This document shows, piece by piece, positions 7,432 to 24,980 of a DNA stretch of 64,000 bases. This DNA comes from Carpediemonas membranifera BICM (lineage: Eukaryota > Protista > Fornicata): contig JAHDYR010000003.1 of NCBI GenBank assembly GCA_019828565.1, forward strand, positions 495,409-559,408, read 5' to 3'. The notes beneath the pieces were generated by a model. That model was not told where the DNA came from and made no database searches. It saw nothing but the letters and a program-made list of their open reading frames with translations. Both the position numbers and the translations under genes were made by a program. Within the stretch, counting starts at the first letter, position 1. Each line of letters opens with the position of its first letter.

Positions 7432-8629
7432 TCAGATGAAGGAAAAGACGATACTGTCGGCAGTATCGCTCTCTGAGCGCTCCTCATCAATCACATTCTC
7501 TTGAATCTCCCCATCACCATCTCTGCCCGCCACCTCCCCGCCATGCTCGTCGTGGTCGATCTTTGGTTCCTCATCGGCACTCTTGCATAAGTCCACCTCC
7601 TCACCAAAGGCGCCCTCCTCGCTCTCCTCGCGAGCTGGCACCTCGTAGTGCATCCACTCTGCCTGGTAAGCTGGCTCGTCGGACACCGCCTCCTCGTCAG
7701 TATCGCCCTCTCTCTCGCCCTCTGGCATCTCTGTCTCGCGAGTCAGCGAGCCGAACTCCGCCTCCTTGTCAGCCTCGCTCTGCCTCTCTTTCTTCTTAGT
7801 ATCGTGAAGCTCGATCATTCTGGCCTTGAGCCTGTTGTAAAGCCAGCCATCGAGCATCGGCGGCACCAGGTCGGCAGAGCTTCGTGATCTCCGGGTTGAG
7901 ATCAAAGATCGTCGGGCGCCGCGTGGTCGTTAAGTGACTGGACGCCAACTGGTGCCTGAACTGCTCATCGGTCAGGCTGATGCGCTTGTCCTTAATGACC
8001 TTCTGAGGCTTCTCCTGCGGTCTGCCGCGGCGCTCTAGCGTGCCGATAGACTGCATCCTATCGGTGGACACGTCGATCCGCTGCGCAAAGCGAAGCATGC
8101 GAACCGTCAACCCCTGAACCTTGAGCGCCTCCGATACAGCACTGGCCTGCGGGAATCCCGATTTGAGCGTGCCAAAGCCCATCCAGCTCGGGCACGAGGT
8201 AAGGTCTATCGCATCGGGGAGATTACCTTGGAGATACGAATACTCCCAGCCCGTCTGGTTGAGCAGAATGGCAATGGCGCCATACGGGCTGGGGAGACTC
8301 TCAACTGATGCAGGGGACACCTCTTCCTCCTCTTTCCAGGACAACGGCTTCGCAGGGTGTGGCAAGTCGAAGTTCCGGAAAGACTGAACAGCCGAAACGA
8401 TCCTCTTAGCCATAGCAGGCGTCTTTGTAGCGAAATAATGCGCCAAATAAGTCGTAACGTTGTCGCTTCGGACAATCTCGATGCCCTTCTGCATTTCAGC
8501 GCCTGTTTCCTGGCAAATGCTGGCCAAAACGTCCTCCAGGTGCTTCTTGTACACACTACGCGTCTTCACTGAAACTCTATCAGACCAGCGCTTAACAATA
8601 TCGTCGTTATTTGCAGCTAGAACCTCCAT
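7432..8629 (-). CDS. Catalytically dead tyrosine-recombinase-fold protein 1 with acidic tail (1-nt frameshift near 7885)
   Basis: Core-binding-like N-terminus (KTRSVYKKHL...RIVSAVQSFRNF), box I-like AIAILLNQTGWE, VRMLRFA in place of HxLRH, LASSHLTTTRRP in place of LGHxxxxTTxxY. Paralog at 20641-22029. Confidence 0.6.
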
Positions 8630-8642
8630 AACACGAGTTTTC

Positions 8643-8978
8643 TGTTGGTATTGCAATTTCAGAATTTCGTACATACAAAATTATCAAATACTTGGATTCG
8701 ACCTAAACTTGGCTCAGATCCGCAATCCTGAGCTGGAGTGGGTTCATGGGAACTTTTTAAAATTTTAAAGTAGTCATGAACATCCAAATTCTAAGACAAT
8801 CTCCGGTACTGGAAGTAATTCTGAAATTGCAATACCAACACAAGTTATATTTCTGAAAACCGAATACACGGTGATACTGTTATCTATTAGCTCCAGTAGG
8901 GACCCAGGCCAGGTTTTGTACACCCTACCCGCTTGCCTCGGAATTCGGACATGCCGAAATTCTGAAATTCGAATACCA
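8643..8978. promoter_or_regulatory. Triplet of cognate sites upstream of pseudo-recombinase 1
   Basis: 8643-8666 is the perfect reverse complement of 8817-8840 (AATTCTGAAATTGCAATACCAACA); third copy at 8955-8978 with 2 mismatches. Confidence 0.75.
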
Positions 8979-9091
8979 CCGCCCATTTTTGACGTATGAG
9001 ATCAGTATCCCATGCCAAACCTCAGGACCGCATTCGTGTACCTTTTCCTGCCCTGTATCCATTATATAACCACCCAATTTCCTTTCACAAT

Positions 9092-9588
9092 GTGCACTTT
9101 ATGCTCGCAACGAGACTGAAATGGCGAACTTAAGAATAGAAAGAATACTGGCAGCTTTAACGTAGTAGGCATGCACATATCACTAAGAAACATCAGTAAG
9201 CGAGCGCAGAGCATCATTAAAGCAACAATAATCCCTAAACAACATCAAGTACCATAAGTCCACCACGTCCATACGATATGAACTATAAATGGAGCATAGA
9301 TCAGTATAGATGATTTGAGAGTACCAGGCATGGCCAGAATACCGCAATTATCGTCCGTTGATCCACCTGACCTCCATCTTGGTCGGTATCCAGAGAACCT
9401 CCGTCAGACGCTTGCAACGGAACATTTAGGGGGAGCATCCTGAATGGGGCCAGATTTGAGGGACCCTTGGTCTGACATGCCATGACCGAGTACTCTAGGG
9501 GCCTCCACAGTGCGTCCCGAGGTACGTTATAGCACCACAGACCTTCCCCCAAAAGCTGACTCCTGGACCCCTTGGCCGGAGCTCGCCG
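9092..9588 (+). repeat. Module N, copy 1 (diverged relative of M)
   Basis: Highly similar to 22487-22980; shares GTGCAC, AAATGGCG, TGGCAGCT and CTAAACAACATC with M. Confidence 0.85.
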
Positions 9589-9862
9589 AAACGTGAAAAT
9601 CGGCGATGATTTCTCCGTATAACGTCATAGGGGGTTATATGGGGCTCTTTTCAGCCGCAGATAACGTCTCTTGGCCATATTAAATTTGCGAAAGGCCCCG
9701 GCTCGCTGGCCGGACGATTTAATCAGCATCGGCGAGAATGGACGTGTGGGTAGGGCTAGGGGTGTGATGACGGCTGGTGGTAGTCACGGTGTGAGTGCTT
9801 ACAAGCCGCAGGCGATATACATAAACTTTTAGTAACCATTTAACGTCTCTTGGCGATATACG

Positions 9863-22029: not shown

Positions 22030-22030
22030 C

Positions 22031-22360
22031 GATATACGGATTTCAGACTTTCGTCATGCACAAAAATTCGAATCTCTCCAAATGCCCAAAACAGTGGTCA
22101 AACCGTGTTCAGGGGTACAATAGAGTGCCATAGGCACGTTCTTGCATTTCAAAATATTCTAGAGGTCGTTCATAAATTCTCAGATGGCCAACAGTACGAA
22201 AGTCTGAAATCCATTTATCATGAGACCCGACAAATTTGAAATCCATTTATCGGGTGGATACATCACTGTAGAGGGTATTCATGGATATAGGTGCCTTTTC
22301 GGTGCCGAGGGGAGTCAACATTTGAGGTCGTGCAGGCAGAAAGTCTGAAATCCGTATATC
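22031..22360. promoter_or_regulatory. Triplet of cognate sites upstream of pseudo-recombinase 2
   Basis: 22031-22052 is the perfect reverse complement of 22339-22360 (GAAAGTCTGAAATCCGTATATC); further copy at ~22198-22219. Confidence 0.75.
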
Positions 22361-22486
22361 TCATCACTGCTTATAGATCCTGGCAGACAACGCCTTCTTG
22401 GCAACGCCTGAGGTGTAAGGATTCGCTTGCCTCTGTGTTGTCGCATCAGCTTCGCTGAAAACGGGTGAACTGACCCGCGCATTCGC

Positions 22487-22980
22487 GCACTTTATGCTCG
22501 CAACGAGACCGAAATGACGAACTGAAGAATAGGAAGAATACTGGCGGCTTTAACGATACAGGCATGCACATATCACTAAGAAACATCAGTAAGCGAGCGC
22601 AGAGCATCATTAAAGCAACAATTATCCCTAAACAACATCAACAACTATAAGTCCATCAGGACCATATGATATGAACTATAAATGGAGCACTGATCAGTAT
22701 AGATGATTTGAGAGTACCAGGCATGGCCAGAATACCGCAATACTCGCCCGTTGATCCACGTGACCTCCATCTTGGTCGGTATCCAGAGAACGCCCGTCAG
22801 ACGCTTGCAACGGAACATTTAGGGGGTGCATCCTAAATGGGTCCAGATTTGAGGCACCCTTGGTCTGACATGCCATGACCGAGCACTCTAGGGGCCTCCA
22901 CAGTGCGTCCCGAGGTACGTTAGAGCACCACAGACCTTCCCCCAAAAGCTGACTCCTGGACCCCTTGGCCGGAGCTCGCC
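22487..22980 (+). repeat. Module N, copy 2
   Basis: Similar to 9092-9588. Confidence 0.85.
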
Positions 22981-23265
22981 CGAAGCGTGCCTCGGCTTGA
23001 ACTAACGGCAAGAGAGCATAAAATCAGCCCTTTCGAACCGTGTTTTATGCTCTGCTGCCGTTATAGAATTATTCAAAGGGCCCTCTCTTTGCGCTTTTTT
23101 TCTGGTTCGTGGGACGAAGTAGGGACGGACAAAAAAAGCACATACGGAAGGTATTGGAGGTACTGAGGCCGCCTAGGTACATAGTTGCCATGTGGATGGT
23201 TTCAGTTTATTACTTTTGGCACTCTATGTCCATTTTTTTATGCTCTCTTGCTGATAGTGCCGAAC

Positions 23266-24980
23266 ATGGACTTGCTAAAGTGGATTGAGAGCGCTAGCAA
23301 GGAACAGTACGATGCGATATTGGCTGCATACACCAAGGCAACCACCAATCATGCCAAATGTGCTGTCCTTCGCGCGGTTTTGCTGGATGAACGGAAACTG
23401 CTCGATCTAGTCATCAGGAAGCGTTTGTAGTCATAGCAATGCTTATATAGGAATCAACCTGAACCATATCACCACGAAATTCCGCCTCACGAAGGACGAG
23501 AAGGAGGAGCTCCATGATAAGTTGAAGAAGCAGTTTATGGCACTCGCCGGACCAAGAAGTTCCAAGAAGCTCGGCGCGCTGGCGAAGTGGGTTGACGACA
23601 ACCAGGCTGATATCGTGTATAGCCAGGGAGAAGCGCAAGGCGCGTAAGGCCATTATTGAGGCCATTGACGCCGAGGAGAAGGACAAGGGCAAGGGCAAGG
23701 CCGAGAGCGCTAAGAAAGAACCCGTCGACGATGAGAGTGGCGTGGACAGTGGTGAAGAGAGCGGCGTCGACGATTCTGAGTTGTGCGACAGTGAGAGTGA
23801 GGTGGACTTTGACAACGAGTCCGACGATGAGATTAGAGAACGCGCGATCAAGCGCCGGCGCGAGAGAAAGATCGCCCAGAAGCTCAAGGAGTGGGAGGAC
23901 AATAACGCTCGCAACTACGTCCTGTGGCATAGAGTCCAGAAGGAGGTGCACGGCGAGCTTCGCATTCGCGCCTCTCGAGAGTCAGCTTCGGTTGCTGGGG
24001 ACAACCACGTCGACGTCCAGTTCGACAGATACCTTCGCGTATCCAAGCTGCTCGAAATGAAGGACTGGATTCACAAAGACCTCCCATCTCTTCCGATGGA
24101 GGCACGAGTGCTCCATCACAAGGCGCAGAAGAGAGTACTCGAGCTGGAGGAGACCGTCACGAGGCTGCTGCAAGACGTGGGGTACGCAGCTGACATCTCC
24201 ATGGGTGCCAGCCCGACACCCGCGCCGTTTCGCCGCGACCTACCCCAGTCGGGCACACACCAAGCACGAACGAGTACCCCCCGCCGTACGGGGAAGAGCG
24301 ACACAATCCACATGAAGCGCAAGGCCCTCATGACAATCCCTCAGAAGATCGCTGATGTCGATAGCAACTCAGAGGAGTCAGACGAGGAGGAGGTGGTGAC
24401 AGAGGAGAGGAAGGGTGAGTCACATGAGGAGGACGTGACCAAATGCGACGCCTGCATCCAGACTGAGCCGGAGACTCAGACTCGCATCACCTCTGAGGCC
24501 GCGGTGCAGACGTGCATCAACGCGGAGGCTCTCACGGCTGGCTGTACCGCGATTCATGTCAAGAGTGACGGCAACTGCGTTGCATATTGTCTCCAAGCCA
24601 TTGAGTTGGGTGGCAGAGTTGATGGCGACTTCGAAAAGTGGCAGCGTGGCCTCTGCCAGTCAGTGAAGGCCAAGTACTGGTCTAAGAAGAATGTCACGGA
24701 GCGTAGCCTGACAGATCCGGACTCCGGCTACTATAACTCGAACGCCATCCGAGTCTGGGCGAGGAAGCAGAAGCGGAACATCCTTGTTGTCCAGTCATAC
24801 GACGGATACAACGGCATGCAAGGCATCTCCGCCATCTTATACCTGTTTGATGGCACCACCATGCTTGCACCCGATGCAGGAATGTGGGGGTTGACAGATA
24901 ATTTCGCTATTGTCATCGAAGGCGATCCGGCTCACGCCACGCTGTACCAGAAGAAGTGCGACGTCGTTGAGATTGAATAA
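23266..24980 (+). CDS. OTU-like protease paralog 3 (frameshifted at ~23420-23600)
   Basis: N-terminus MDLLKWIE..KCAVLRAVLL aligns with the 9863 protein; OTU domain nearly identical. Confidence 0.65.

Follow-up and report, generated by a model that had tools for sequence, protein, structure and literature searches.

A repeated unit in Carpediemonas membranifera pairs a predicted recombinase-like, kleisin-bearing protein with an OTU-like gene

How does a protein that resembles a dead tyrosine recombinase (YR) come to lie twice beside a protease-like gene, and what might the two do together? This question is raised by a 64,000-nucleotide stretch of contig JAHDYR010000003.1 (the window) from Carpediemonas membranifera, a free-living protist, in which one unit is present twice: a minus-strand chimeric gene, a cluster of short sites, a block denoted module N, and a plus-strand OTU-like gene. 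An earlier note on this DNA had proposed a non-catalytic, recombinase-derived DNA-binding protein together with an OTU-like protease. The predicted fold, the pairing and the multi-copy, undescribed system all stand, and the protein is recombinase-derived, non-catalytic and probably a sequence-specific DNA binder; it is not, however, simply a full-length dead recombinase. As judged from its sequence, it is a chimera of a core-binding fold, a middle part, a kleisin segment and an acidic tail, and the architecture of the unit appears to be undescribed. We tentatively favour, as a reading that falls just short of being probable, a multi-copy, module-swapping selfish element whose chimeric protein likely attaches to the sites in the unit's spacer and likely brings in Scc3/STAG from the host.

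The unit and its two copies

The same layout does occur twice in the window, as the note had claimed: module N is 93% identical between the copies (9094-9595 versus 22487-22989), and the 3' end common to both OTU-like genes is 95% identical (10973-11603 versus 24372-25002). The surrounding 1-33 kb, with a GC content of about 50%, are pieced together from short gene blocks and non-coding modules that recur. The two copies contain the following features.

7432..8629, minus strand: chimeric gene copy 1 (beta1 head, tail II), with core-binding fold, middle, kleisin segment and acidic tail
near 7885, minus strand: frameshift (+1, as assembled) in this gene, relative to the intact paralog P0022
8372..8629, minus strand: predicted YR core-binding-fold domain of copy 1, the best family member against the XerD-like hidden Markov model
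7792..8005, minus strand: Rad21-like (kleisin) segment of copy 1, split by the frameshift
8646..8978: site cluster copy 1, with sites a 8646-8669 (minus), b 8814-8837 (plus), weaker b' 8846-8869 (plus) and c 8955-8978 (plus)
9094..9595, no strand assigned: module N copy 1, whose start is the shared motif GCACTTTATG
9863..11581, plus strand: OTU-like gene copy 1 (head A, OTU type 1), protease domain at ~11120-11578
10023-10052, plus strand: predicted 30-nt intron of this gene
20641..22029, minus strand: chimeric gene copy 2 (alpha head, tail I), an intact open reading frame (ORF) of 462 amino acids
21757..22029, minus strand: predicted YR core-binding-fold domain of copy 2, from AlphaFold and VIA-align
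21172..21375, minus strand: Rad21-like (kleisin) segment of copy 2, amino acids 219-286
22030..22361: site cluster copy 2, with sites a 22030-22053 (minus), b 22197-22220 (plus), weaker b' 22229-22252 (plus) and c 22338-22361 (plus)
22487..22989, no strand assigned: module N copy 2
23266..24980, plus strand: OTU-like gene copy 2 (head B, OTU type 1)
23423-23450, plus strand: predicted 28-nt intron of this gene, positioned as in copy 1
near 23625, plus strand: frameshift (+1, as assembled) in this gene, relative to intact paralogs

A predicted core-binding fold joined to a kleisin segment

The recombinase resemblance lies in the N-terminal part. In an AlphaFold model of the copy 2 protein, built from a two-row alignment, residues ~11-100 form the only confident block, with a predicted local distance difference test (pLDDT) score of 73-91, and beyond residue 104 the score is mostly below 50. 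When compared with 48,161 chains by VIA-align, the model matched SroF best (Z 8.6, root-mean-square deviation 2.4, 85 residues aligned), followed among others by XerD (8.1), XerA (8.0), Ndc10 (7.7), lambda Int (7.7) and MrpR (6.8); by title, 17 of the first 19 rows are integrases or recombinases, Ndc10, MrpR or SroF. At the sequence level, hhalign aligned the N-terminal part of the family to a 67-sequence XerD-like alignment with a probability of 93%, a score that none of 60 column shuffles or 60 block shuffles reached. A feature search in the Atlas pointed the same way, to Phage_int_SAM clusters (0.94), with fewer shared features than members of one family would have, and no match to the protein was found in Pfam, PHROG or PDB sequences. 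Residues ~10-105 are therefore predicted to adopt the YR core-binding fold. The note had anticipated this structural match, as well as a basic patch and an acidic tail, two features that the chimeric proteins have. The core-binding domains of the two window copies are identical at 21 of 80 positions, and the two minus-strand proteins at 41% overall.

The note had further read the C-terminal half as a catalytic domain whose motif spacing was kept. This was not confirmed: in a profile test of that half against the XerD-like catalytic part, 10/60 and 14/60 shuffles scored as high. Box I is the best window directly after the core-binding domain in four of four proteins (P 0.03-0.31), and neither it nor a GL[ST]V..LR motif is significant alone (shuffle P 0.03-0.55); both could be recombinase remnants, and half a catalytic domain may be left in residues ~92-218. 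In place of the box I Arg there is T, E or K in each of the 21 members in which this position exists, and the box III region is homologous to kleisins, so that the catalytic set R-K-H-R-H/W-Y is absent. What the note took for a degenerate box III (LASSHLTTTRRP, with H/Y changed to S/P) lies within this kleisin-homologous block and is not derived from a recombinase.

The kleisin connection came from an HMMER search of 1.84 billion representative proteins, which gave six matches: four family members and the proteins P0063 and P0065. None of the six is the catalytically intact YR relative that the note had suggested looking for. P0063 (E 7e-10) and P0065 (E 6e-6) match the chimeric family only at profile positions ~203-255. 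Pfam Rad21_Rec8_N matches P0063 above its cut-off (E 1.8e-7) and P0065 below it (E 0.0096), and the two proteins align with each other over their N-terminal, middle and C-terminal parts at 30% identity. The corresponding block in the window, of ~70 residues, is 59% identical to P0063 (blastp E 7e-25) and 41% identical to P0065. Neither of these proteins was linked by phmmer to the Rad21 chains of the PDB when used alone, but their joint profile was: it retrieved only Rad21 chains (5/5, E 0.021-0.42), and also aligned to a second, low-scoring stretch in two full-length chains, human Rad21 and the cohesin rad21 of 6yuf, with the motif running up to residues 343 and 388, respectively. Through this profile the block maps to human RAD21 ~319-343, including the helix that contacts SA2/Scc3. 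According to passages of PMC6120753, the Scc3-binding fragment is yeast Scc1 309-400, and the base of the SA2 nose is where the human helix 334-342 is located. A candidate assignment of SLTDEQFR as YR box II, with the Tyr of WLY 39 residues further on as nucleophile, was rejected, both lying within the kleisin block; the position of this Tyr is His or Ala in P0063 and P0065.

The block is a regular part of the family. It matches P0063 in 22 of 25 family proteins (E <= 4e-22) and P0065 in 23 of 25; it is missing from two fragments that consist of a tail alone and from one protein with a deletion, so that it occurs in 22 of the 23 that are long enough, across all head and tail types. None of 37 OTU, kinase or other island proteins match P0063 or P0065. 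For this species, the supplement of PMC8516963, in the part covered, names two Rad21 genes and a single STAG gene but no Pds5. Since the motif is common to the two kleisins and human Rad21, copying most likely ran from a host kleisin to the element, as far as sequence can tell.

Only the middle of a kleisin is present. No Pfam match to Rad21_Rec8_N, the N-terminal Smc3-binding domain, was found in the family proteins, whose best local kleisin match is the middle only; the C-terminal Smc1-binding winged helix was not found either, and the acidic tails do not align to kleisin C-termini. With both SMC-binding ends absent, the chimeric protein cannot close a cohesin ring. The kleisin origin of the supposed box III thus shifts the likely function from that of a repressor to that of a cohesin adaptor or decoy.

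Sites, protease gene and family

The spacer upstream of each chimeric gene contains the inverted-site triplet that the note had described, plus a fourth, weaker site (b') that follows the second by 32 bp in either copy. Each spacer has a word that occurs three times; at its longest it measures 12 nt in one copy and 15 nt in the other, a length that none of 500 shuffles reached for either copy. The four sites, of ~24 bp each, keep their orientation and spacing between copies (159/158, 32/32 and 141/141 bp), and in both, site a is immediately upstream of the chimeric gene's start codon. Over the collinear spacers, with site limits set by the analyst, identity is 66% inside the sites (63/95) versus 41% outside them (147/361; p 1e-5). 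Sites resemble each other more within one copy than between copies; a weight matrix built from one copy placed the other copy's three sites within its next four matches in the window. A closely spaced inverted site pair of the recombinase-core type was found in neither cluster.

Module N, which follows the sites, is probably non-coding on sequence grounds and behaves as a conserved exchange block. A protein gene was considered and rejected: between the copies its minus-strand ORF shows 3 synonymous versus 10 non-synonymous codon changes. A structured RNA was likewise rejected, the four strand-pieces folded giving z scores of -1.5 to +1.0. Rfam gave no match below E 0.89 in 1-34 kb, metagenomes gave no match to the module N pattern, and a sigma-70 scan of the window, irrelevant for this eukaryote, was at chance level. 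The motif at the start of module N, GCACTTTATG, occurs 12 times exactly in positions 1-33000 (0.07 expected), and CACTAAACAACATCA occurs there 13 times at <= 2 mismatches (0.08 expected), each in 5 distinct contexts; the two motifs, which were chosen post hoc, recur in otherwise unalignable modules, often after TGCAC.

The divergent partner gene encodes a domain in which a G-x-C Cys loop, a Trp and an H-A are invariant in all five OTU-like domain types, the other types being 14-28% identical to type 1. Its PDB matches were short N-terminal protease domains of viral L proteins (3/3, E 0.07-0.13), which we take to be OTU domains, and in the Atlas it scored 0.92 against a cluster in which PF02338 makes up 19%. 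No recognisable match was obtained for the conserved head domain in these genes. Both window copies contain a GT-AG intron, of 30 and 28 nt, at the same position; its removal restores collinearity, and unspliced copy 1 has a 10-residue insertion there relative to P0045. This shared position and restored collinearity make host splicing of the OTU-like gene probable. Since TAG terminates host genes of the window, read-through of TAG was discarded as an explanation.

Across the genome, a word search of annotated proteins (lengths 159-508 only) found 25 members of the chimeric family in 9 clusters. The homologs that are 93-100% identical all belong, by their NCBI names, to Carpediemonas membranifera. 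The search for OTU-like genes gave 13 clusters (lengths 314-1001), of which 10, with 18 accessions, were examined. Nine of the 24 DNA-binding genes with an accession adjoin an OTU-family gene by accession number, which bears out the linkage elsewhere that the note had predicted: in 20,000 draws, random placement gave a mean of 0.11 and a maximum of 3, a shared-island null gave a mean of 1.9, and none reached nine.

Further genes and repeats accompany the unit in the window.

5962..7267, minus strand: Ser/Thr kinase gene accompanying the unit (Pfam Pkinase)
11693..12341, plus strand: second, divergent OTU-like domain (type 5) 3' of copy 1, in two frames, identified in part through P0030
20091..25509: span of direct repeats S (20091-20507 and 25093-25509), 417 bp, 99.8% identical, flanking copy 2
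5465..12903: span of inverted module M copies (5465-5853 and 12426-12903), flanking the kinase gene and copy 1

Each of the eight kinase paralogs is at most 9 accessions away from a unit gene, and five are directly adjacent. A kinase is found within 4 accessions of 6/8 tail-II genes and within 5 accessions of 1/16 tail-I genes, which suggests that tail II and the kinase form a swappable module. The final ~28 residues of tail I recur in diverged form just past the kinase stop, at 5868-5951 (minus).

The family is mosaic throughout. Three heads and two tails of the chimeric genes occur in five combinations, and three heads and five protease types of the OTU-like genes in eight, with the heads pairing freely across module N (alpha-B, alpha-C, beta2-A, beta2-C and beta1-A). 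Between the diverged parts of the two window copies of the chimeric gene, which differ in head type, silent differences occur at 40 of the 61 identical degenerate codons; third positions are 36% identical there versus 50% for positions 1 and 2. These silent differences and the third-position divergence indicate long purifying selection on the chimeric gene, in line with the selection among paralogs that the note had asked about. GC content at third positions (GC3) is 0.54-0.71 in the genes of 1-33 kb, similar to the 0.69-0.71 of the retroelements at 33-46 kb and different from the 0.79-0.85 of the host genes at 47-63 kb.

No relative of the DNA-binding protein was found in IMG/VR, JGI metagenomes or GenBank phages. 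Among sequencing runs, a single one of unspecified kind matched, its contigs spanning just short pieces, and no RNA run did. Capsid, packaging ATPase and pPolB genes were detected neither in 17 ORFs of 1-33 kb (Pfam) nor in the island ORFs (PHROGs), searches that divergent or spliced genes could escape. A literature search covering few subscription journals found no description of the chimeric family or of such a fusion. The family is not described in the covered parts of PMC8516963, the covered main text of PMC10120064 does not mention the genus, and bioRxiv 10.64898/2026.05.21.726589, in the parts covered, mentions the species only for DAM proteins.

Possible roles of the unit, and its surroundings

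We propose that the core-binding head would bind sites a-c in the unit's own spacer, and that the kleisin segment would dock on Scc3 as Rad21 does, placing Scc3 and cohesin on the element. Cohesin there could serve stable inheritance or a favourable chromatin state, and the OTU-like protease and kinase might act on ubiquitin-like and phospho marks around the complex. As site a abuts the start codon, a chimeric protein bound at it would also repress its own gene. The selfish element would spread by duplication and by recombination through its conserved blocks (the kleisin segment, module N and a PQSG linker), and, lacking a catalytic recombinase of its own, would depend on an enzyme from elsewhere for its mobilisation. 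More tentatively still, we suggest that a selfish family captured an Scc3-binding kleisin segment and fused it to a recombinase-derived, site-specific binder, giving an analogue of CTCF or STB by direct mimicry, in which swappable heads read swappable sites; such anchors may also serve chromosome organisation or segregation in a cell without ORC, Ndc80 and CenpC.

Several observations weigh against this proposal. On the kleisin side, the mid-region stretch of the joint profile scores just 3-7 bits on Rad21, and the block's own profile retrieved no Rad21 chain, making the link from the block to human and yeast Rad21 indirect; P0063 and P0065 are full-length divergent kleisins of the Rad21/Rec8 type, and only candidates for the host's two Rad21 genes. 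The invariance of the block (49/72 columns) may reflect recent homogenisation (92-97% DNA identity) rather than selection. VIA-align Z scores of ~8 are modest and, by the tool's own warning, can be common among helical domains, which is why the sequence test of the N-terminal part was added; Foldseek returned nothing for the N-terminal model at E <= 0.001. The OTU-like domain has no Pfam OTU match, its assignment being based on motifs and weak matches (E 0.07-0.13), and the pLDDT of its fold model is 31. No annotated OTU gene adjoins 15 of the 24 DNA-binding genes, and adjacent accession numbers are a proxy for linkage that does not extend to orientation or spacers elsewhere. Element ends, a target-site duplication, a capsid and an active recombinase or other mobilising enzyme were not found in the window. 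Finally, each window copy has one frameshift, so that neither is fully intact as assembled; both frameshifts may be consensus artefacts of a repeat family.

The same kleisin homology would also fit a decoy rather than a tether, with the element's protein titrating Scc3/STAG against host Rad21 and thereby keeping cohesin off the element or disturbing host cohesion to its own advantage. The lack of Smc3- and Smc1-binding ends agrees with this, and Scc3 held on this segment may be unable to hold the real Rad21 too. We nevertheless regard a decoy as unlikely, since a DNA-binding fold with sites of fixed geometry fits local recruitment better than bulk titration.

Distinctly unlikely, in our view, is domesticated host machinery, in which an Ndc10/CTCF-like adaptor would mark centromere-like or boundary loci and anchor cohesin there. 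Ndc10 is itself a non-catalytic YR derivative, the species has no ORC, Ndc80 or CenpC (PMC8516963, in part), paralogs lie on most of the largest contigs, a 148-copy 14-bp satellite is present in the window, and the intron position is conserved in the OTU-like genes. Host machinery of this kind is difficult to reconcile with several loci per contig, with a mosaic family that has truncated and frameshifted members and transposon-like GC3, and with the finding of no relative outside Carpediemonas membranifera in the annotated-protein word search or among the 1.84 billion proteins searched by HMMER.

Were the protein a dead recombinase that does nothing but repress the element, with the kleisin piece incidental, it would resemble MrpR, a YR-fold repressor on repeated sites (PMC10516654, in part). 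SroF and MrpR are among the fold matches and site a abuts the start codon, but an incidental piece would hardly be kept in 22/23 long-enough proteins with all head and tail types, and we consider this improbable. Equally doubtful is a non-functional patchwork, in which segmental duplication would have multiplied pieces of captured genes within a repeat island that rearranges: it would account for the frameshifts, the truncations and the varied breakpoints, but not for silent-site divergence with open frames, Cys and His retained in OTU types that are 14-28% identical, or site footprints of fixed spacing. An active, highly divergent tyrosine recombinase mobilising the unit at the site cluster is scarcely credible, for all its core-binding fold, accessory-site-like geometry and the direct repeats around copy 2, given T, E or K at the box I Arg in 21/21 members, kleisin-derived sequence where the catalytic Tyr is expected, and no closely spaced inverted site pair.

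How, then, does the proposed self-encoded cohesin anchor compare with known systems? CTCF is a sequence-specific, zinc-finger binder that positions cohesin via its SA subunit, using a short YxF motif and an SA2-RAD21 surface; unlike this single-copy host gene with its YxF motif, the present unit has a copied kleisin segment. We know of no kleisin piece in Rep1 or Rep2 of the yeast 2-micron plasmid (Rep1/Rep2-STB), which is also selfish, multi-copy nuclear DNA. Host cohesin is assembled at the cis locus of that plasmid (PMC2811031, in part); recruitment here is suggested by anatomy, and in contrast to the episomal plasmid with its active Flp, the copies sit in chromosomes and the Rad21 segment is part of the DNA binder. 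Ndc10/Cbf2 and Crypton-derived binders are likewise non-catalytic, YR-derived DNA-binding proteins (fold Z 7.7; PMC3212892, in part), but they are single-copy host genes with GCR1_C or DUF3504 domains, and have neither a kleisin segment nor a protease partner. Pfam detected no GCR1_C or DUF3504 in the chimeric proteins. SroF of phi3T, the top structural match, is a repressor and, like MrpR of SP-beta, a YR-fold protein. MrpR has lost catalysis and binds a repeated element (PMC10516654, in part); both are bacterial phage proteins with a full catalytic-domain fold and, unlike the chimeric protein, no kleisin segment.

Pairing of a YR or transposase-type gene with a ubiquitin-like protease has precedents in the C48 (Ulp1) cargo of oomycete CryptonF and CryptonS and in the OTU cargo of Ginger1 and Helitron elements (PMC3212892 and PMC2836005, each in part). 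OTU and Ulp1 proteases are frequent passengers of transposons. Those elements carry an active recombinase or transposase, whereas here the OTU-like protease is on a separate, divergent gene with a non-catalytic partner. The middle segment is like that of the alpha-kleisins Rad21, Scc1 and Rec8 in mapping to the SA2/Scc3-contacting region, and differs in standing without both SMC-binding ends. The DNA-binding part also resembles ALOG domains (PMC3537659, in part). On the features tested, the unit fails membership in active YRs, Cryptons and kleisins.

If the tether reading is true, it would mean a new way for mobile DNA to seize cohesin, through a kleisin segment outside a kleisin, and a candidate for sequence-directed chromosome organisation where the replication and segregation machinery is largely missing. 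The chimeric protein may also offer a compact natural module for putting Scc3 and cohesin at chosen sites.

Other features of the window lie around the two copies. A candidate mobiliser of the unit is the frameshifted ORF pair at 30354-32515 (plus), which by eye resembles an RNase H-fold DDE transposase in its motifs; it has no Pfam or PHROG match. Near-perfect hairpins of ~115 nt (z ~-10 to -11) lie upstream of this transposase-like gene, at 27375-27493 and 30064-30176. A HEPN-like gene is present in inverted copies at 760-1766 (plus, frameshifted) and 12921-13928 (minus), with weak Pfam support (E 0.014-0.09), and a paralog adjoins an OTU-like gene on another contig. The ORF at 2209-2934 (minus) is presumably SET-domain-like, judged by eye from a motif, and has no Pfam match. 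A PHD-finger-like gene (Pfam E 0.04) occurs at 26263-27027 (minus) and 28950-29713 (minus), with an in-frame TAG in both copies, within a 2687-bp tandem duplication at 25146-30520.

Two homologous hairpins of ~95 nt, at 19045-19145 (minus) and 19300-19397 (plus), face away from each other and have RNA z scores of -13.3 and -10.8 on their preferred strands; further ones lie at 25845-25940 and 28535-28630. They have changes on both stem sides and no Rfam family, and each of the two is followed by a C-rich tandem array, of 148 copies of 14 bp at 16942-19037 and 13 copies of 15 bp at 19410-19598. Downstream of the patchwork lie a Gypsy-type element with 125-bp direct repeats (33437-38752), preceded by an extra integrase fragment, and a non-long-terminal-repeat retrotransposon with a reverse transcriptase (42010-46789).

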